Notes under the pieces: generated by a model
What the model was told of the DNA's origin: nothing
The model's input: only the letters and a program-made list of their open reading frames with translations
The model's database searches: none
DNA from: Escherichia phage vB_EcoM-UFV09
Sequence record: MZ291552.2
Length of the DNA: 64,000 bases
Direction: 5' to 3' (one strand)
Shown here: positions 9,940 through 53,700 of the stretch, piece after piece
Numbering within the stretch: position 1 is the stretch's first letter
Layout: the number at the start of each line of letters is the position of its first letter
Translations under genes and position numbers: made by a program

Positions 9940-11358
9940 TTATGGATAGGTATAGATGATACCAGTTTCTAAAGCTGTTTTGTGAATGATGTATCCATTA
10001 CGCGATTCTTGGACATCAACTTCTGGATAGTCTTTCATCATCTTCTGAAGCGTATAACGATGCAAGTAGTACTTACTATCTGGGTCGTCAGTTTTCCAAT
10101 CTTTACCTTCTTCAGTCATTTTTTGGATTTCATCCATAACCCACCAACCGCACCAGATATAAGCTGAAGTACGGTGCGGAAGAGGATGAACATAAGGCAA
10201 TTCACCTTCTGGTTCTGGAGCAACTTTATCAGTCACTTGAACTTGACCTGTTGTTTTAACTGTTTTGCTATCATAATCAGTTGCTGTAACGACAGCAGTA
10301 ACTTCAATAGTTTGACTTCCAACAGATGAGGTATCGACAGTATATACGTTAGTTGACCCTTCTACAGGAGAAGAATCTTTCTTCCACGAGTAAGTAATTT
10401 GTGCTTCTTCTGGAGCATCCGTAACATTAGCAGTAAATGTAGCCGAAGCATCTTGCTGAACGTTAATAGAAGGAGGAGTCAATGTAACCTGTGGATTCAT
10501 TGTCTTCTTATTAACTGTCAATGATACTTCATTAGAAGTAACTTCCTTTTCATTGTAATTTTCTGCTGTTACTTGGGCTACGCATTTAATTCTTTTTACT
10601 CCACTTGTAGTTGGAGTATAGCTAAATGTAGAGTTAGTTTCTCCACCAACTTGTGAATCATCTACATACCATTTATATGTAGCAGACGCTCCATCAGGTT
10701 GAGAAGCTAAGGCAGCAGTAAATTGAACTGGGGTTCCAATTACTCCAGCTGAAGGACTAGCAGGAGTTACTGCCAATGTAGTTGTCTGTGTCTTTTTATT
10801 AACAGTCAGTGATACTTCATTCGAAGTAACGGTTTTTTCATCATAATTTGTCGCGGTTACTTGAGCTACACACTTGATTTTTTTAACTCCGCTTGCGGCA
10901 GGAGTGTAATTGAATGTAGCAGAAGTCGCTTCGTCTACAGGAGAACTGTCAACGTACCATTGATACGTAGCAGATGCACCTGATGGCTGCGAAGCTAAAG
11001 CAGCGGTAAATTTAACAGCTGTTCCAATTACTCCTGCTGGAGGACTATTGGGAGTTACGGCTAAGGTAGTCGTCTGAGTTTTGTTTTTGACTGTGATAGT
11101 TGTAGTAGCTTCTGCTGTTTCAGCTTCAGATTCTGGAACTGTATTTGTTGCAACAACTTTAATAGTCTTTTAACCAGCAGGACCTTTTAATACATAATCA
11201 AAAGTTGCTTCAGACCCATCTTGTGGAGCATTATCTACACTCCAAGCATAAGTAATAGTTCCACCTCCAGTTTCACCACTGGGTGCAGCAGTAAACTGCT
11301 TGGTTTCATCAATAACTCCTGACGGTGCTTTAGGAGTTATATCAACTGTAAAAGCCAT
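9940..11358 (-). pseudogene. hoc: Highly immunogenic outer capsid protein Hoc, interrupted by one in-frame TAA (plus 11170-11172); about 472 codons if read through
   Basis: N-terminal piece MAFTVDITPKAPSGVIDETKQF...LKGPAG then TAA; the same frame continues KTIKVVATN... with no further stop to 9940 (hand translation); Ig-like repeats and C-terminal capsid-binding region recognised. Confidence 0.8.
10500..11080 (-). repeat. Tandem duplicated Ig-like domain coding units inside hoc (two units of about 290 bp)
   Basis: The two DNA units align with frequent substitutions; encoded peptides LAVTPNSPPAGVIGTAVKFTAALASQPSGASATYQWYVD and LAVTPASPSAGVIGTPVQFTAALASQPDGASATYKWYVD. Confidence 0.7.
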
Positions 11359-22237: not shown

Positions 22238-22241
22238 CAAT

Positions 22242-22270
22242 GGGGACCGAAAGGTCCCCATATTTTTATT
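22242..22270. terminator. Bidirectional hairpin terminator between gene 54 and the convergent minus-strand ORF
   Basis: ggggacc-gaaa-ggtcccc followed by a T tract. Confidence 0.65.
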
Positions 22271-22556
22271 TACGGAATGAAATAAAAGCAGCAACTGAAG
22301 CAACAGAGGTTTCTTCAATATAAACCTCAATTTTTACCGGAGCTTCTGACTCAAATTTACCTGTTACTACACCTTGGAAAATACTTTCAGTCTGTTCTGG
22401 CTTTGAAAAATTTTCAGAAGGAAAAATTCCAAACTTTTTATCGGTTCCGAAAATTTTAATAAATTCATCATAAACTGCTTCATTGAAAGCGTTATCAGCG
22501 GGAATAACGCCTTCAACGACGAGTTCTTGACCTAAAAAGCGCAAAGAAGATTTCAT
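22266..22556 (-). CDS. Hypothetical protein downstream of the Alt paralog
   Basis: 96-aa ORF preceded by an early-promoter and RBS cassette. Confidence 0.6.
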   Translation of the reverse strand: MKSSLRFLGQELVVEGVIPADNAFNEAVYDEFIKIFGTDKKFGIFPSENFSKPEQTESIFQGVVTGKFESEAPVKIEVYIEETSVASVAAFISFRK

Positions 22557-22563
22557 TTTGTGT

Positions 22564-22617
22564 TCCTCATGTTATGTCAGTAAGATTATTATAACACAAC
22601 ACGAGGGACTTGTAAAC
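22564..22617 (-). promoter_or_regulatory. Sigma70-type early promoter and leader: -35 TTTACA, 17-bp spacer, -10 TATAAT, then GAGGA RBS (copy 1 of a 54-bp exact repeat)
   Basis: Minus strand reads GTTTACA-17 nt-TATAAT; the identical 54-mer recurs at 37872-37925. Confidence 0.65.
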
Positions 22618-24674
22618 TACATTTTGAACTTTTTAGACATTCCGTTGATGTTAACCAAAGAAGCTAAGATTTGAGAAACTTCGTTTTCCTCTTCTTTTGA
22701 TTCTTCTACAAGGAATTGATTAAATCCAGCCATTGGACGAACTTCACCAGTTTCCATCAGATGGTCGCCATCATATACTGATTCTTCTAATTGTTCAGAA
22801 GGAGGAACGATTGTACCTTCGATTAGATACTTGTTATAAGCAGTTTCTTTCATCATGTACGTACTTACTTTATTAATCTTCAGTAAAATTCCACGCGGCA
22901 AAATAACTTCAGCTTCGGATGGAAATCCTGATAAATGACCTGGAACGATAACTTTAACTCGTTCAGCTCCTTTAATTACCATACCTACATTAGTTTCAGC
23001 GTCTTCATTCGCATATGTAGAATGACTACCCATATGCATTAAATCTTCAGCATCAACTGAACCTTCTCCTTCACCAGAAAATACTGCTCCGGAATCATCT
23101 AAGGCCATATAATTTTTACCATATTCACCGAAGATATTTGGCTTGAGTGAAGTAGATACAAAGTTCTTGAAATAGAACATTTTATTTTCTATATTATGAC
23201 GTAAAGTTTTAAAGGTAACTTCTTGCCCACGATAAAGAGTAGTTCCTGGAGGAAGAACTGAACCTTTAGAAAATGCAGAATCCAGCGTCTCAATATGTTT
23301 AATAGCTCGTTCCATATATTCTTCACGGGTAGAATCAGGTTTACCTAGAAGGAACGAGTTCATTTCAACATATGAATCTGCGCAATAATCTTCAATTACA
23401 TCAGACTCAGCCTGAGTTAATCCTTTTGGAGTTACTTCAGTGCTTGCATATTCATATGCCTGAGCAGCAGATTCATCAATTAATTTATAAATTCCATTCA
23501 TTACAAATTGAATAATAGCTGTCTTTTCATCTGGTGTAGCTTTAGAACCTTTAACTAAATCATTGACAATTTTCTTAATAACATCAAAGCTATTAGAAAT
23601 ATTAATGTCAGCAAGATCGCTTAAAATTTTATCAGTTTTATAATCAAAGAATTCTTTATTCTTTAAATATTCTTGAGAACCTTGATATGTTATATCGCTC
23701 TGCAGCTTGATAGATGGATCGCGTAAACGTGCATGGGCCAATGCAATATGATTTCGGAAGCTTTCGAGTTCATAATCACTAGATTTAAAACGAGAAGCAC
23801 TTCTCATACCACCGATAGCTCCTTTGCTAAAGTTTGAACCAACCTGAATAACGCCAGAGTTCATTGGTCCTTCTGCTTTATATACCGGAACTTTAGATTC
23901 AAACTCTTGATATTTCTTAGCAGCGAAGCTATCACCCTGAAGTGAAGCATCAACAGTAGAATATTGAGCTTGTGCTGCTAATCGACGACTAATTTTAGTT
24001 TTCTGAATAACAGCTTGATCCGTGCGCTTATCATTTTCTAAAGCAATAGAAGCAGCAACAGCAACAGCTTTAGGAACAGCATTACCTGTTTTAACGTCTA
24101 CATAAACATCACCAACCTTTGATTCAACTTTTGTGAATAACTCGGTTGAAATAGGAGGTACACCTGGAATGTCTTCTAAATTGGCATTTTTACGGTAAAC
24201 CATAATATATGCGTACTTTTTATCATAATCCCAGATTTCCTTTAAAAGAACATATCGACCTGCTCCTTTAGTACGTACTAAACGGTCAGCAATAACTTGC
24301 ATTTGCCGAGCAGCGCCATTTGTTTTACTTTTTAGTACGCGGAATAAGCATGCATCAATTTTATACTGTTTCATTGTTTGAAGAGCAGTATCAAAAACAG
24401 CATTAATGACGCCAATTGGATTTCCACCCAAGTTTTTAAGCTTAACTAATGATAGTTTCTCATTAACGCCTATCATTACGATATGCATCATTTTGTCGCC
24501 TGGCTTAACGTTTTTATTCGTATCACCGCCAGAGGTGTATGTACAAAATCTAAATCCAGGAAGCACGCTTTCTTCACCTGCTTGAATAGCAAAAATTTGA
24601 GGTATTTTATGCTTAGGATTTAAGTTAACAACCGGCGCCGAAGCGCCGTCAAATAATTCTGTAATAAGTTCCAT
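22617..24674 (-). CDS. Alt-family ADP-ribosyltransferase paralog (internal head protein-like)
   Basis: 685 aa; N-terminus MELITELFD shared with the adjacent Alt; C-terminal R (LYRGQ), STS (NFVSTSL) and E-x-E (EAEVILPRG) motifs. Confidence 0.75.
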   Translation of the reverse strand: MELITELFDGASAPVVNLNPKHKIPQIFAIQAGEESVLPGFRFCTYTSGGDTNKNVKPGDKMMHIVMIGVNEKLSLVKLKNLGGNPIGVINAVFDTALQTMKQYKIDACLFRVLKSKTNGAARQMQVIADRLVRTKGAGRYVLLKEIWDYDKKYAYIMVYRKNANLEDIPGVPPISTELFTKVESKVGDVYVDVKTGNAVPKAVAVAASIALENDKRTDQAVIQKTKISRRLAAQAQYSTVDASLQGDSFAAKKYQEFESKVPVYKAEGPMNSGVIQVGSNFSKGAIGGMRSASRFKSSDYELESFRNHIALAHARLRDPSIKLQSDITYQGSQEYLKNKEFFDYKTDKILSDLADINISNSFDVIKKIVNDLVKGSKATPDEKTAIIQFVMNGIYKLIDESAAQAYEYASTEVTPKGLTQAESDVIEDYCADSYVEMNSFLLGKPDSTREEYMERAIKHIETLDSAFSKGSVLPPGTTLYRGQEVTFKTLRHNIENKMFYFKNFVSTSLKPNIFGEYGKNYMALDDSGAVFSGEGEGSVDAEDLMHMGSHSTYANEDAETNVGMVIKGAERVKVIVPGHLSGFPSEAEVILPRGILLKINKVSTYMMKETAYNKYLIEGTIVPPSEQLEESVYDGDHLMETGEVRPMAGFNQFLVEESKEEENEVSQILASLVNINGMSKKFKM

Positions 24675-24677
24675 GAT

Positions 24678-26771
24678 TTATCCTTGAACGAACTTGTAAG
24701 GCATGTTTGTAATATCTATGCAAGACGCAATAATTCCAAGAGATGATTCTACTTTCTGTTTAATATTTGATGAAACAAATGATGCAAAGTCAACTCTGTC
24801 TTCTATTTCAATATCACCTGTCATTGCAACCAATTCACCAGTTTCCATTAAATGGTCTCCATCATAGATTACCGATTCGGTGAGCTCTTCCGTGGTCATA
24901 ACTTCAGCTTGAATGAGTTTTGTATTATTAGATGTTGTTCCGTCATTATTAGAAGCATCGATTATTTTATTAACTTTGACCATCAATCCACGCGGTAGAA
25001 TAACTTCAGCTTCTGTTGCTATTCCGAGACTTCCTGGATATACAACATTAACTTTATGAGCTCCATCAATTGCCCATCCTATTTGAACTTTAACATATTC
25101 AGGATTTTCTTTATACGCTCTTATTTCGTTTGGATTAATAGTTATTCCTTCTTCATTTTTATCAACTGTTAATTCATTGCGAGCTTCTGGTTCTAAAAGA
25201 CCAATACCAGCATGTGTGATTCCAAAACGTCCAAAAATGATAGGAGTTAAAGAAGTAGATACAAAATTTCTGAAGTAGAACACTTTATTTTTAACTAACG
25301 CTTCATATATAGGAGCAGTCATACTTTGAGCACGATAAACTGTAATGCCTTCTGGTATACGGTCACCATTTTCAAAAGCTGAATCTAAGTTATTTATAGC
25401 AGATTCAATTTCTTTTTCACTCATTACATCGTATCGTTCTGGATTGTAACGACCTAAAAGAAGATTATTGATGTCAGTATATCCTGAACCGCAATATTCT
25501 CTAATGCCACGCTTTTGTGATGGAGTATATTTAGAACCATCGCGGGCAATAGTAATATCAATCATTGGACCAGCACCAATTCCAGAAAAACTGTAAATCA
25601 TTCGTTTGAGGAATTTAGTTTTTGCTGCGTTCCAGGAATTTTTAGTTATTTCTTCCCAGACTTCATCTGGTTGTCCTTTACGATTTTTATTATGATTAGC
25701 AAGCCATTTATCTTTATAATCTTCAAAGAATTGATTTACAGCTGCTGCGTATTTCTCTAAACATTTTATTGAAGTAGTTGGTTCATTTTTAATTGCATTA
25801 AAAATTACTTCTTTAATTTTTTCTGAAACTTCACCGACTTGACTCATTGGAAAGAATTTATAATCATAGTGAAGTTCATCTGCCGTTCCTTCAGCAATAA
25901 TTTTTGCTGCCTTTGTTTTAGAAGCTAATGAATTAATTCCAATTTTCATTTCTTCTGCTTCGGGAATTAAAGGTGCAGTAGCTGGTTTATTAAAATTAGC
26001 TGCTGTAGATTCATACTTCTGGAATAATTCACTTTCAAATCTAGAAGATTCCAATGACTGACTTTGTGCAATTGCTCTACGGGAAATTTTAACTTTAACG
26101 ATTACAGCTTGGTCAGAACGTTTATCATTTTCTTGCGCAATAGATGCTGCAATTGCTTCATTTTTAGTTACTTGAGCTCCAGTATCTTTATTGATATAAA
26201 CATCACCGACCTTCGATTCAACTTTAGTAAAGAGTTCAGTGCTAATTTCTGGAACTCCTGGAATGTCTTCTAATGATACATTTTTGCGATGTATAAGAAT
26301 ATATGCATACTTTTTATCGTAATCCCAGAGTTCCTTAAGAAGGACGTATCTGCCACCTGAACGACTACGGATAAGTCTATCAGCAATAACTTGAATTTGT
26401 CGAGCTTGGCCAGCAGTTTTAGACTTAAGAATACGAAGCATGCAGGCATCAATTTTATATTGACGCATCGTTTGCATTGCAACAGTAAAAACTGAATTGA
26501 TATAATTAATTGGGCTTGGACCAAGACCTTTTAATTTAGCAATTGAGCCTTTAGCAGTTAATGTAAAAGGAACAATATGCATCATTTTATCGCCCATCTT
26601 TAAATCGCGATTAGTATCACCTCCAGATGTATAGGTACATAAACGAAAGCCTGGTTGTTCAATTGCATCATCAACATGAACTGAAAAAATTTGTGGTATT
26701 TTCTTCTTTGGATTTAAGTTTGTAATCGGAAGAGTAGTATCTTCGTCAAATAATTCTGTAATAAGTTCCAT
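24678..26771 (-). CDS. alt: ADP-ribosyltransferase Alt (packaged, injected RNAP-modifying enzyme)
   Basis: 697 aa; N-terminus MELITELFDEDTTLPITNL recognised as T4 Alt-like; VYRAQ, NFVSTSL and EAEVILPRG motifs; position next to gene 30. Confidence 0.8.
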   Translation of the reverse strand: MELITELFDEDTTLPITNLNPKKKIPQIFSVHVDDAIEQPGFRLCTYTSGGDTNRDLKMGDKMMHIVPFTLTAKGSIAKLKGLGPSPINYINSVFTVAMQTMRQYKIDACMLRILKSKTAGQARQIQVIADRLIRSRSGGRYVLLKELWDYDKKYAYILIHRKNVSLEDIPGVPEISTELFTKVESKVGDVYINKDTGAQVTKNEAIAASIAQENDKRSDQAVIVKVKISRRAIAQSQSLESSRFESELFQKYESTAANFNKPATAPLIPEAEEMKIGINSLASKTKAAKIIAEGTADELHYDYKFFPMSQVGEVSEKIKEVIFNAIKNEPTTSIKCLEKYAAAVNQFFEDYKDKWLANHNKNRKGQPDEVWEEITKNSWNAAKTKFLKRMIYSFSGIGAGPMIDITIARDGSKYTPSQKRGIREYCGSGYTDINNLLLGRYNPERYDVMSEKEIESAINNLDSAFENGDRIPEGITVYRAQSMTAPIYEALVKNKVFYFRNFVSTSLTPIIFGRFGITHAGIGLLEPEARNELTVDKNEEGITINPNEIRAYKENPEYVKVQIGWAIDGAHKVNVVYPGSLGIATEAEVILPRGLMVKVNKIIDASNNDGTTSNNTKLIQAEVMTTEELTESVIYDGDHLMETGELVAMTGDIEIEDRVDFASFVSSNIKQKVESSLGIIASCIDITNMPYKFVQG

Positions 26772-26794
26772 GTTATCCTCTCTAGTGTTTATTC

Positions 26795-31551: not shown

Positions 31552-31580
31552 ATACTATCACAAAGGAACCATACTGTAAA
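31552..31580 (-). promoter_or_regulatory. Candidate early promoter (-35 TTTACA, 17 bp, -10 TAGTAT) upstream of the 110-aa ORF
   Basis: Minus-strand pattern TTTACA-17 nt-TAGTAT read from sequence. Confidence 0.35.
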
Positions 31581-31811: not shown

Positions 31812-32056
31812 TATAAATTCTCTTTTAAATGAAAATGCAGGACTTATTGGCATTGCCTGCGCAAGCCCTCAAGGGGAACATAGGTTTTTGGGTATTTAAC
31901 GACCAGGATAACCATAAACCCGTCATCATTCACATTCAAGAGGTACACCATAAAACTGCCGGGGTCTTAAAACTATAATGATTCGCAAATCATTAATCAG
32001 ACAGTTCGATGGCTCCTCGATTTTAGCTCACACTAAGGCAGTGAATCTCCAATAAA

Positions 32057-34542: not shown

Positions 34543-34603
34543 TTTGTTTTCCTCATTTATTTGGTAGAGCTATAATATCACAACTCTACCGTAAAGTAAA
34601 CTA

Positions 34604-37020: not shown

Positions 37021-37370
37021 TTAGAAAGGTCCTGGATGTCTTCTGCGAACTTGTTGAAGGAGTTGTTGATTTGTTTTTCAACCAATCCTGGCTTACGAGC
37101 CACCACATCCGCCTTCTTTGCGTCTTTGCGCAGCTTTTCATTTTCACGCTCAATAGCAGCAATTGCCTCACGATTTTTATTATTCATCGCGTCAATATAA
37201 TTATACTGAATTCGCAAATTATTTAATGCTAAGGCGTTTTCATTGGCCGTTTTTGTAATTTCAGTAACTGATGTTTCTAATCTTTCTACCTTATTTTTTA
37301 AAATAATAGATGTTCCGCCTAATGCTATTACAATTAATAGCAAACCTGCTGTAGTATTACTTAATTGCAT
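37017..37370 (-). CDS. Inner-membrane spanin (Rz-like)
   Basis: 117 aa; N-terminal transmembrane segment then coiled-coil-like periplasmic domain. Confidence 0.6.
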   Translation of the reverse strand: MQLSNTTAGLLLIVIALGGTSIILKNKVERLETSVTEITKTANENALALNNLRIQYNYIDAMNNKNREAIAAIERENEKLRKDAKKADVVARKPGLVEKQINNSFNKFAEDIQDLSK

Positions 37371-37864
37371 AAAGTTTTAATAACCTCTACAATATCATCT
37401 TGAGAAAGACCGTTAATTAAAATATGATGTTCAGCCGGAGATTTAGAAATTTTAAAGCATGCCTCAACATCTTCTGCCATATCCGATGCACTACGATTTG
37501 GATTACTAATTCCAAGACGATGCTTTCCAGTCAAAGGATTAACGATGATATAGCATTTACAGCTATTGATATGAACATTGGGCTGAGTCTGATTAATGAA
37601 CACTTCGCACTCATACTTAGCGAGTTGATTTTCTAAAAAGACTTTCATCTCTTCAACCGCATCAGGAAGCATATCGCGGGCTTGCTCAAGACGACGATTT
37701 CGATATTCTTTAATGGTAGTTTTCCGCTTGACTTGCTTAGCTAAATCTTTCTTAAGATCGGTGATATATCCAACTCGACGATTTCCTTTGAATACAGAAA
37801 TCCCATCTGTAGTATCACCGTATGCTTCAACGACCATCTCAGTAGTAATAAGCTGCAAATCCAT
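37361..37864 (-). CDS. alc: Alc, inhibitor of host transcription
   Basis: 167 aa, same as T4 Alc; position between pseT region and rnlA; early promoter upstream. Confidence 0.7.
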   Translation of the reverse strand: MDLQLITTEMVVEAYGDTTDGISVFKGNRRVGYITDLKKDLAKQVKRKTTIKEYRNRRLEQARDMLPDAVEEMKVFLENQLAKYECEVFINQTQPNVHINSCKCYIIVNPLTGKHRLGISNPNRSASDMAEDVEACFKISKSPAEHHILINGLSQDDIVEVIKTLCN

Positions 37865-37871
37865 TATAAAG

Positions 37872-37925
37872 TCCTCATGTTATGTCAGTAAGATTATTAT
37901 AACACAACACGAGGGACTTGTAAAC
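37872..37925 (-). promoter_or_regulatory. Sigma70-type early promoter and leader upstream of alc (copy 2 of the 54-bp exact repeat)
   Basis: Identical 54-mer to 22564-22617; -35 TTTACA, 17 bp, -10 TATAAT, GAGGA RBS. Confidence 0.65.
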
Positions 37926-37928
37926 AGC

Positions 37929-39516
<1,588 letters not shown>

Positions 39517-50711: not shown

Positions 50712-53700
50712 ATGGCCGAGATTAAAAGAAAGTTCAGAGCAGAAGACGGTCTGGACGCAGGTGGTGATAAAATAATCAACGTAGCTTTAGCTGATCGTAC
50801 CGTAGGAACTGACGGTGTTAACGTTGATTACTTAATTCAAGAAAACACAGTTCAACAATATGATCCAACTCGTGGATATTTAAAAGATTTTGTAATCATT
50901 TATGATAACCGCTTTTGGGCTGCTATAAATGATATTCCAAAACCAGCAGGAGCTTTTAATAGCGTACGATGGAGAGCGTTACGTACTGATGCAAACTGGA
51001 CAACTGTTTCGTCAGGACCTTATCAATTAAAATCAGGCGAATCGATTTCAGTTAACACTGCAGCGGGTAATGACATTACATTTACTTTGCCATCTTCTCC
51101 AATTGATGGTGATACTATCGTTCTCCAAGATATTGGAGGAAAACCTGGAGTTAACCAGGTTTTAATTACAGCTCCGGTACAAAGCATTGTAAACTTTAGA
51201 GGTCAACAAGTACGCTCAGTACTAATGACTCATCCAAAATCACAGATAGTTTTAATTTTTAGTAATCGTCTGTGGCAAATGTATGTTGCTGATTATAGCA
51301 GAGAAGCGGCAGTTGTAACGCCAGCGAGTCTTTATCAAGCGCAATCAAACGATTTTATCGTGCGTAGATTTACTTCTGCTTCAGCAATTAATATTAAACT
51401 TCCTAGATTTGCTAATCATGGGGATATTATTAATTTTGTTGATTTAGATAAATTAAATCCGTTATATCATACTATCGTTACTACATACGATGAAACGACT
51501 TCAGTACAAGAAGTTGGAACTCATTCCATTGAAGGCCGTACATCTATTGATGGTTTCTTAATGTTTGATGATAATGAGAAATTGTGGAGATTATTTGACG
51601 GTGATAGTAAAGCGCGTTTACGCATTATAACAACTAATTCAAACATTCGTCCAAATGAAGAAGTCATGGTATTTGGCGCGAATAATGGAACAACTCAAAC
51701 GATTGAACTTCAGCTTCCAACTGATATTTCTATCGGTGATACTGTTAAGATTTCCATGAATTACATGAGAAAAGGACAAACAGTTAAAATCAAAGCTGCC
51801 GGTGAAGATAAAATTGCTTCTTCAGTTCAATTGTTGCAATTTCCAAAACGTTCAGAATACCCACCTGAAACTAAATGGGTGACTGTTCAAGAATTAGTTT
51901 TTAACGGCGAAACTAATTATGTTCCAGTTTTACAGCTTGCTTATATCGAAGATTCCGATGGAAAATATTGGGTTGTACAGCAAAACGTTCCAACAGTTGA
52001 AAGAGTAGACTCTTTAAATAATTCTACTAGAGCAAGATTAGGTGTAATTGCATTAGCTACACAGGCTCAAGCTAATGCAGATTTAGAAAATTCTCCACAA
52101 AAAGAATTGGCAATTACTCCAGAAACGTTAGCTAATCGTACTGCTACAGAAACTCGTAGAGGTATTGCAAGAATAGCAACAACTGCGCAAGTAAACCAGG
52201 ATACCACATTCTCTTTTGCAGATGACCTTATCATCACTCCTAAAAAGTTGAATGAAAGAACTGCTACAGAAACTCGCAGAGGTGTCGCAGAAATTGCTAC
52301 GCAGCAGGAAACTAATACAGGTACTGATGATACTACAATCATTACTCCTAAAAAGCTTCAAGCTCGCCAAGGTTCTGAATCATTATCTGGTATTGTAACT
52401 TTTGTATCTACTGCAGGAGCTACTCCAGCTTCTAGCCGCGAATTAAATGGTACGAATGTTTATAATAAAAACACTAATAACTTAGTTGTTTCACCTAAAG
52501 CCTTGGATCAGTATAAAGCTACTCCAACACAGCAAGGTGCGGTAATTTTAGCAGTTGAAAGTGAAGTAATTGCTGGACAAAGTCAAGAAGGATGGGCAAA
52601 TGCGGTTGTAACGCCAGAAACGTTACATAAAAAGACATCAACTGATGGAAGAATTGGTTTAATTGAAATTGCTACTCAAAGTGAAGTTAATACAGGAACT
52701 GATTATACTCGTGCAGTCACTCCTAAAACTTTAAATGACCGTAGAGCAACTGAAAGTTTAAGTGGTATAGCTGAAATTGCTACACAAGTTGAATTCGACG
52801 CAGGCGTCGACGATACTCGTATCTCTACACCATTAAAAATTAAAACTAGATTTAATAGTACTGATCGTACTTCAATTGCTACACAAGTTGAATTCGACGC
52901 AGGCGTCGACGATACTCGTATCTCTACACCATTAAAAATTAAAACTAGATTTAATAGTACTGATCGTACTTCTGTTGTTGCTCTATCTGGATTAGTTGAA
53001 TCAGGAACTCTCTGGGACCATTATACCCTTAATATTCTTGAAGCAAATGAGACACAACGTGGTACACTTCGTGTGGCTACACAAGTTGAAGCTGCTGCCG
53101 GAAAATTAGATAATGTTTTAATAACTCCTAAAAAGCTTTTAGGTACTAAATCTACCGAATCGCAAGAAGGTGTTATTAAAGTTGCAACTCAGTCTGAAAC
53201 TGTGGCTGGAACGTCAGTAAACACTGCTGTATCTCCAAAAAATTTAAAATGGATTGTACAGAGTGAACCTACCTGGGCAGCTACTACTGCGATAAGAGGT
53301 TTTGTTAAAACTTCATCTGGTTCAATTACATTTGTCGGTAATGATACAGTCGGTTCTACCCAAGATTTAGAACTGTATGAGAAAAATAGCTATGCAGTAT
53401 CACCATATGAATTAAACCGTGTATTAGCAAATTATTTGCCATTAAAAGCAAAAGCTGCAGATAGTAATTTATTGGATGGTCTAGATTCATCTCAGTTCAT
53501 TCGTAGGGACATTGCGCAGACGGTTAATGGTTCACTAACCTTAACCCAACAAACGAATCTGAGTGCCCCTCTTGTATCATCTAGTACTGCTACGTTTGGT
53601 GGATCAGTTTCAGCAAATAGTACATTAACTATTTCTAATACTGGAACAGCAACTCGATTGATTTTTGAGAAAGGACCTCAAACTGGAACAAACCCAGCCC

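Follow-up and report, generated by a model that had tools for sequence, protein, structure and literature searches.

Two identical 54-bp early-promoter cassettes before alc and alt.-3 in a Tequatrovirus: probable gene conversion and a hairpin that may gate translation

In the 64,000-nucleotide stretch of Escherichia phage vB_EcoM-UFV09 analyzed here (MZ291552.2; hereafter the window), the same 54 bases stand on the minus strand in front of two unrelated genes, which raises the question of how two sites 15.3 kb apart, with the essential genes 30 and 31 between them, come to carry exactly the same sequence, and what that sequence does. The repeat (GTTTACAAGTCCCTCGTGTTGTGTTATAATAATCTTACTGACATAACATGAGGA) has exactly two copies, one at 22564-22617 (copy A), upstream of a 96-aa open reading frame (ORF), and one at 37872-37925 (copy B), upstream of alc; the preliminary description of this DNA had reported both, and the match is indeed exact. 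Its length is exactly 54 bp, as the bordering bases differ between the copies on either side. The search for further copies that had been proposed found none in the window at up to 3 mismatches, and 0 were expected from 100 shuffles. On balance, we favor the view that these are old early-promoter cassettes of the published PeSL type, each with a promoter-embedded hairpin that sequesters the Shine-Dalgarno (SD) sequence, and that recurrent short-tract gene conversion has kept them alike; within this view, the start site, the translational effect, and the recombination mechanism are the parts that we infer.

Each cassette fills the gap between an upstream stop codon, 0-3 nt before it, and a downstream ATG, 7 nt after it, which is the placement that defines a PeSL. 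The first base of copy A is the last base (G) of the TAG stop of a 685-aa Alt-like ADP-ribosyltransferase (22617..24674, minus strand), the second of two alt paralogues and the source of any read-through into copy A; 7 nt beyond the other end lies the ATG of the 96-aa ORF that copy A serves (22266..22556, minus strand), a DUF5498 protein homologous to T4 alt.-3 (Pfam PF17602, 3e-62; T4 alt.-3 annotation). Copy B begins 3 nt past the TAA stop of rnlA (RNA ligase 1, gp63; 37929..39053, minus strand), from which read-through would enter it, and 7 nt beyond copy B is the ATG of alc (37361..37864, minus strand; 167 aa), the inhibitor of host transcription (Pfam PF17527, 8e-92; T4 annotation). The terminator scan showed no terminator-like site between rnlA and alc, and none that would stop read-through from alt into copy A. 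We found no protein similarity between Alc and Alt.-3, which are two unrelated proteins, and the repeat stops before the spacer that leads to the ATG; a duplication reaching into the genes was thus ruled out. The window belongs to the genus Tequatrovirus, and both cassette regions are 100% identical to those of Escherichia phage vB_EcoM-UFV05/06/10/11.

Numbering the 54-mer from its 5' end (coordinate = 22618 minus position in copy A, and 37926 minus position in copy B), the -35 element TTTACA occupies positions 2-7, the 17-bp spacer 8-24, a TGn motif 22-24, the -10 element TATAAT 25-30, and the SD GAGG 50-53. In copy A, the -35 (22611..22616, minus strand) directly follows the TAG stop of the upstream alt paralogue, and the -10 (22588..22593), which sits at the top of the hairpin described below, is preceded by TGn at 22595-22596. 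In copy B, the -35 (37919..37924, minus strand) lies 4 nt past the rnlA TAA stop, and the -10 (37896..37901) likewise has TGn before it. The -35, spacer, and -10 are therefore those given in the preliminary description, to which the extended -10 is an addition. Reading GTTTACA, 17 bp, TGt-TATAAT, both copies score 11/12 plus TGn and have the form of a T4-type early promoter. Both are top-scoring promoter-like sites; between 22000 and 40000 of the window, they are two of the three best sigma-70-like matches (11/12) and the only ones that bear TGn. Neither GTTTACA nor the frame of the -10 varies in 26 cassettes of several genera. From the 7-nt distance to the -10, we predict transcription to start at A37 (22581 in copy A, 37889 in copy B). 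Upstream of the -35, copy A has AAAAAGTTCAAAATGTA and copy B AAAAATTATAAAAAATTTATCCCAGAAGGATACTAAGCT, both of them A-rich coding sequence. Mapped start sites for the alc and alt.-3 promoters were not found in the literature reached.

Expression classes from T4 bear on this assignment. In the time course of Wolfram-Schauerte et al. 2022 (supplement), alc and alt.-3 are both early in RNA and early in protein, rnlA is early in RNA and late in protein, and alt is middle in RNA and late in protein; alt.-1 and alt.-2 are middle in RNA, with no protein class given. In these T4 data, the shift in RNA class from middle (alt.-2) to early (alt.-3) falls at the cassette. That the class differs on the two sides of each cassette fits an early promoter there, without proving it, and in the same way the protein classes fit, without proving, downstream proteins that do not follow the upstream ones. 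The suggestion that the repeat comprises a strong T-even early promoter, a leader, and a ribosome-binding site (RBS) is thus upheld by the top sigma-70-like scores, by the early classes of the downstream genes in T4, and by the later classes of the upstream ones. We are highly confident that the cassette is an early promoter.

That reading of the cassette as promoter, leader, and RBS had overlooked an 18-bp hairpin that pairs the SD with the promoter spacer. Positions 12-29 pair with positions 35-53, with C38 bulged and a loop at 30-34, and the folding energy is -20.4 kcal/mol (z-score -6.0 in copy A and -6.5 in copy B; 0/200 shuffles are as stable). The 5' arm opens with an anti-SD, CCTC, which lies in the -35/-10 spacer and pairs with the SD GAGG, while the -10 is at the hairpin top. 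On the minus strand, the fold places the 5' arm of copy A at 22589..22606, upstream of the predicted start, and the 3' arm, which is the leader, at 22565..22583, with the SD at 22565-22568; the corresponding parts of copy B are at 37897..37914 (anti-SD in the promoter spacer) and 37873..37891 (SD at 37873-37876). This geometry matters because the 5' arm includes the -10, and any start from the cassette promoter falls at about position 37, inside the 3' arm. Since the 5' arm lies upstream of the start site, the helix cannot form in RNA made from the cassette's own promoter; accordingly, the first 42 nt of the promoter-initiated leaders fold with only -2.2 and -3.2 kcal/mol (z about 0). In 121-nt models of the read-through RNA, the SD bases are paired at a probability >0.96. 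When everything upstream of +1 is cut away, copies A and B give up more folding energy than any other of the 51 promoter-like sites in the window. We lean slightly toward SD sequestration being functional.

Two further readings were set aside. An intrinsic terminator was ruled out, as the stem is followed by AACACAAAAUG or CUUUAUAAUGG with no U-tract and was not called by the terminator scan. A mini-ORF in the leader, ATGAGGA..., ends over the start codon in both copies and was judged uninformative, because an ATG just before the SD is common in T4-type early RBSs and out-of-frame stops are frequent in AT-rich DNA. A search of Rfam 15 gave no match in the window at gathering score; the sole match, to a plant miRNA model, is at chance level (E = 0.65). 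Elsewhere in the window, minus-strand early-promoter-like sites with hairpins spanning the -10 were seen with their -35 at 34600 (before cd.2), 31188 (before 30.7), 46364, and 31580 (before 30.8). At 31580, the spacer segment TTCCTTTGT pairs with the SD segment ACAAAGGAG, so an anti-SD in the spacer is not a design unique to alc and alt.-3.

The pairing is found well beyond this phage. Of 22 distinct cassettes upstream of alc, 17 have a minimum free energy structure in which the SD bases, all or almost all of them, pair with the stretch directly following the -35; these 17 come from Tequatro-, Karam-, Moon-, Gapriver-, Jiaoda-, and Dhaka-type phages and differ in arm sequence, with energies of -15 to -25 kcal/mol and z-scores of -3 to -7. 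We assessed covariation in nine Karam-, Moon-, and Gapriver-type cassettes of near-equal length, which align with one short gap. Across this set, a 14-bp helix is 97.6% paired and shows compensatory double changes at four pairs (8 cells), a result that 0/500 shuffles reach; slid registers are 29-56% paired with zero double changes. A switch of the SD from GGAG to GAGG is matched by one from CTCC to CCTC in the opposite arm, and one pair is G-C, C-G, or U-A depending on the phage. RNAalifold run on a plain MAFFT alignment of 26 cassettes returned no structure; the 3' arms were misaligned there between groups that differ in stem length. Within Tequatrovirus, five pairs vary on one side and still pair. 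Only one of 34 Tequatrovirus copies shows any change in the leader (positions 35-54), while 12 of positions 1-34 vary (Fisher p = 0.019), and the flanking coding sequence diverges by 2-4%.

How old are the two sites? A blastn search with the cassette gave 997 hits across 499 phage records, which amounts to two for each genome in all of Tequatrovirus. T4 has both copies at the same two sites, and they differ from each other by one base; where T4 reads TATAGTAGT in both copies, the window reads TATAATAAT in both. An exact 58-mer made up of the cassette and its alc flanks is present in 25/499 records, and an exact 72-mer of the cassette and its alt.-3 flanks in 12/502. Outside the genus, the rnlA-alc gap (57-64 nt) holds an early promoter in Karam-, Moon-, Jiaoda-, Mosig-, and Tegunavirus and in many IMG/VR contigs, and the alt-alt.-3 gap (57-64 nt) does so in Dhaka-, Mosig-, Marfa-, and Karamvirus. 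Because both gaps carry an early promoter in other genera, both promoters are old, and what is peculiar to Tequatrovirus, judged by these sequences, is one identical sequence type at both sites and not the presence of promoters. IMG/VR yielded only nine stretches that match the cassette and was of little use for population counts. Two records stand apart in these searches. Among the records listed, only Escherichia phage vB_EcoM-G28 (MG867727 / NC_054916) is hit by the 72-nt alt.-3 cassette query at three places; the third place is outside the first 50 kb, and a third copy is possible. Staphylococcus phage SAJK-IND (MG010123.1) has a T4-type cassette at 31824-31877, near the record end, with 98% identity, which is probably contamination or a chimeric assembly.

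We compared both copies in 17 genomes, namely the window, T4, 10 GenBank phages picked to span the range of identities, and 5 IMG/VR genomes, and found no fixed differences between alc and alt.-3 copies. Each locus has 10 variable positions, of which 7 recur at the other locus and show identical alleles there (hypergeometric P = 7e-5, counting only the overlap of positions). Phage U115 carries the linked haplotype T11/T15/A16 at alc, and an IMG/VR genome carries it at alt.-3; T34 likewise occupies alc in PhiZZ6 and alt.-3 in Manna; C19 is present in both copies of phage Ec_YwIITB1; and A29/A32 occurs in 6/17 alt.-3 copies versus 2/17 alc copies (window and PP01). On average, 1.76 differences separate the paralogues of one genome and 2.15 those of different genomes; the figures for orthologues are 2.0 and 1.9. 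Shared variants and similar distances indicate that both sites draw on one variant pool. The preliminary description had attributed the identity to recent duplication or gene conversion, and it is the second that the shared polymorphisms and haplotypes and the missing fixed differences support. We consider recurrent gene conversion between the two sites to be strongly favored by this pattern of sequence, which is also our basis for speaking of recombination at all. For the exact identity in this phage, the best reading is a single recent conversion event, in which the alt.-3-type TATAATAAT most likely moved into the alc copy. Excision of the intervening DNA as a mini-circle would be lethal, because the 15.3 kb between the copies holds genes 30 and 31.

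The cassettes of other genera have also changed places. The alt.-3 cassette of four other genera forms a small hairpin within the spacer itself (CCACAAGGATGTGG and variants), and its SD is unpaired with the spacer; at alc, the anti-SD type is found in at least five genera. The alt.-3 of Tequatrovirus carries an alc-type cassette. Conversely, Mosigvirus alc carries an alt.-3-type cassette, ~79% identical to the alt.-3 cassette of the same genome. In a Dhakavirus-like genome (IMGVR_UViG_2706795356_000001), an identical 29-nt leader/SD/ATG module, CCTTACACAAACATGAGGAGAACATTATG, stands before alc and alt.-3, and the promoter halves differ. Throughout, the gene orders rnlA-alc-pseT.3 and alt-alt.-3-gene 54 hold for every Tequatrovirus sample and for five to six other genera, and no gene gain, loss, or replacement beside the two cassettes was seen in any genome examined. 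The idea that such repeats shuffle downstream modules consequently finds no support at these loci, where flanking gene order is the same in every genus examined; to judge from the sequences, what moves is the cassette or parts of it, not the flanking genes. Related modules occur elsewhere: CCTTACACAAACATGAGGAGAACATTATG lies ahead of a third gene (MINTFRKYGEMK...) in two other contigs; the Mosigvirus alc cassette, of a small spacer-hairpin early-promoter family, is at three places per genome (e.g., MK373778, OR352940); and a 45-nt match related to it occurs once per Tequatrovirus genome, near 66-68 kb in T2.

In the mechanism that we propose, RNA started at the cassette's own promoter, at about A37, would hold only the 3' arm and leave the RBS open, which would permit immediate-early synthesis of Alc and Alt.-3. 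Read-through RNA from the later-acting rnlA and alt would hold both arms, and its SD would be locked in a helix of about -20 kcal/mol. Short-tract gene conversion between the cassettes would recur and keep the copies alike, exactly so in this phage. Several observations weigh against this proposal. Both the A37 start and the blocking of read-through RNA are predictions. The upstream stop is 10-14 nt ahead of the 5' arm, and a ribosome that terminates there might melt the helix at its base. Within Tequatrovirus, where divergence is too low, there are no double compensatory changes, and the variants C12A, T19C, and T27C each break a pair. The hairpin is missing from Mosigvirus alc cassettes and from one other lineage, and the Tegunavirus-type alc hairpin spans the -10 and stops short of the SD; these exceptions mean that the device is not indispensable. 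Finally, the excess similarity of paralogues within a genome is weak, at 1.76 versus 2.15 (permutation p = 0.056).

For the likeness of the copies, two accounts other than conversion can be given. Very strong purifying selection could act on each copy independently, say by way of a trans-acting factor common to both, without the sites ever exchanging DNA, and the almost invariant leader (positions 35-54) at both loci makes it clear that part of the cassette is under selection. This account leaves unexplained why the same derived alleles and haplotypes (T11/T15/A16, A29/A32, C19, T34) are found at both loci in different phages, why both copies differ jointly between T4 and the window, and why cassette types have swapped loci in Mosigvirus and Dhakavirus-like phages, and we regard it as quite improbable. 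More improbable still is that a cassette was recently duplicated, or that a mobile promoter cassette entered a new site, as the 54/54 match in this genome might suggest when taken by itself: both copies occupy the same sites in ~500 Tequatrovirus genomes, T4 included, and early promoters fill both gaps in other genera. The rarity of the 58-mer (25/499 records) and the higher frequency of A29/A32 at alt.-3 (6/17) fit conversion of a cassette that already existed.

For the hairpin, the alternatives concern what it acts on. It could act on transcription or on RNA ends, either as an attenuator or insulator against upstream RNA polymerase or as a protective 3' hairpin for processed rnlA and alt mRNAs, which encode late-acting proteins and could gain from stabilization. 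The PeSL authors assign such a role to their stem-loops, and those of RB49 and phi1 lower reporter expression like a terminator (PMC2839356); moreover, hairpins over the -10 without SD contact exist at 34600, 31188, and 46364 on the minus strand of the window and in Tegunavirus alc cassettes. The missing U-tract and the silence of the terminator scan speak against it, as does the finding that the best-kept feature across genera is the SD/anti-SD pairing, maintained through the GGAG to GAGG switch, which a pure terminator or stabilizer would not require. We therefore think this role unlikely to be the main one, and it does not exclude SD sequestration, nor sequestration it. Alternatively, translation could be coupled: alc or alt.-3 on read-through RNA would then be translated only after the 5' arm has been melted by a ribosome that is completing rnlA or alt, and downstream synthesis would depend on upstream translation instead of being shut off. 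The upstream stop lies 0-3 nt before the -35 and thus only about 10 nt before the anti-SD, which by the size of the ribosome footprint is within reach of a terminating ribosome, and in Karam-type cassettes the 5' arm begins right after the -35. In Tequatrovirus, such a ribosome would reach at most the first 1-3 of the 18 pairs, and in T4 Alc and Alt.-3 are early proteins while RnlA and Alt are late, which argues against tight coupling; we judge coupling to be improbable. Of these explanations, SD sequestration combined with recurrent conversion is the one with which we proceed.

If SD sequestration holds, a T4 device in which the promoter decides whether an RNA can be translated would extend to early genes, with opposite timing, and would explain how Alc, a factor in host transcription shut-off, is confined to the first minutes despite long read-through RNAs. 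In this virus, the cassette pair also offers a clean case from nature of a 54-bp regulatory element evolving in concert over 15 kb. When T4-like phages are engineered at alc or alt.-3, recombination between the two cassettes is to be expected. The second gene has an interest of its own, as alt.-3 is dispensable and mutants with a C-terminal extension of its product escape the CmdTAC defence (PMC11618068). Only tentatively do we entertain a wider view, in which T-even-type phages share a conserved switch embedded in the alc promoter (and, in Tequatrovirus, in that of alt.-3 too), the anti-SD in the spacer making the gene translatable only from RNA of its own early promoter, and in which alc and alt.-3 form a privileged exchange pair. 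Replacement in both directions in at least three genera (the whole cassette in Tequatrovirus, the reverse in Mosigvirus, the leader half in Dhakavirus-like phages) would then imply selected co-regulation, possibly via a factor that reads the invariant leader.

Other features around the two loci and in the window are recorded here. In the window, alc has a single start codon (ATAATGG, 37862-37870), and most relatives have two in-frame ATGs (ATGATGG), which account for the 168-aa Alc of some annotations. The alt (ADP-ribosyltransferase) paralogues are in tandem on the minus strand, at 22617-24674 and about 24678-26772, with 72-80% nucleotide identity in patches at a spacing of ~2.1 kb and an exact 29-mer at both N-termini (24647-24675, 26744-26772); in T4, the second alt copy is reduced to remnants (alt.-1, alt.-2). 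A likely bidirectional terminator between alt.-3 (minus strand) and gene 54 (plus strand) is seen at 22240-22261, where a perfect G+C-rich hairpin of 9 bp, ATGGGGACC GAAA GGTCCCCAT, is accompanied by T-runs on both strands. Farther away, 52775-52972 (plus strand) is an exact 99-bp tandem duplication (33 codons), and diverged 68-nt repeats are also present at 52113-52783; both appear within the gene for the long-tail-fibre proximal subunit, and the exact in-frame duplication in this gene of the receptor-binding apparatus may be recent. At 10501-11076, a 288-nt unit occurs in two tandem copies with 75% identity.

How does this pair compare with systems already described? The promoters themselves differ in no way of kind from T4 early promoters, with which they share the GTTTACA -35, the 17-bp spacer, TGn, a near-consensus -10, and a position directly before an early gene (Hinton 2010, PMC2988021); the PST/T4 early promoter consensus is TTTACW-N17-TAYWAT (Comeau et al. 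2014, PMC4122927). The closest relatives of the whole cassette are PeSLs, which consist of a stop codon in an A/T-rich stretch, a -35 and a -10, a stem-loop between the -35 and -10 or over the -10, an SD, and an ATG (Arbiol et al. 2010, PMC2839356). Similar PeSL copies at several sites recombine, with crossovers mapped between the -10 and the ATG, and in RB49 and phi1 stem-loops between the -35 and -10 or over the -10 cut a downstream reporter as strongly as a terminator does (PMC2839356). Like them, the alc and alt.-3 cassettes combine a promoter, a stem-loop overlapping the -10, and an SD at the 3' end, exist as two similar copies per genome that appear from their sequences to recombine, and in the Dhakavirus-like genome show partial swaps resembling the published crossover zone (-10 to ATG). 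Unlike PeSLs, this pair is 15.3 kb apart with essential genes between, and conversion is the one form of exchange seen; gene order around the cassettes is conserved in all genera here, whereas PeSLs are associated with indels and gene replacement; and the SD lies within the 3' stem arm, a point not discussed in the PeSL papers reached.

For the predicted effect on translation, the nearest precedents are the T4 genes e, soc, 49, and I-TevI, whose long transcripts fold the RBS into a helix, and a promoter inside the helix gives translatable RNA without the 5' arm (Uzan and Miller 2010, PMC3014915); alc and alt.-3 are absent from the list of SD-sequestering hairpins in that review. The models predict the same for alc and alt.-3, with the SD paired in the read-through helix and the promoter starting inside it. 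The internal promoter of the known cases is late (TATAAATA) and the gene is silent early, whereas here the promoter is an early sigma-70 one, and the predicted effect would be reversed, with translation only in the early burst. As for the likeness of the copies, the lack of fixed differences and the shared polymorphisms are those of concerted evolution by gene conversion, and 54 bp is close to the ~50 bp of homology reported to be needed for T4 recombination, a figure that PMC2839356 quotes from Singer et al. 1982; what differs here is that the unit is a non-coding regulatory cassette of two unrelated genes. The cassette is thus of a kind already described, the T4-type early promoter or PeSL, and it likely carries a translational gate of a known type in a new setting.

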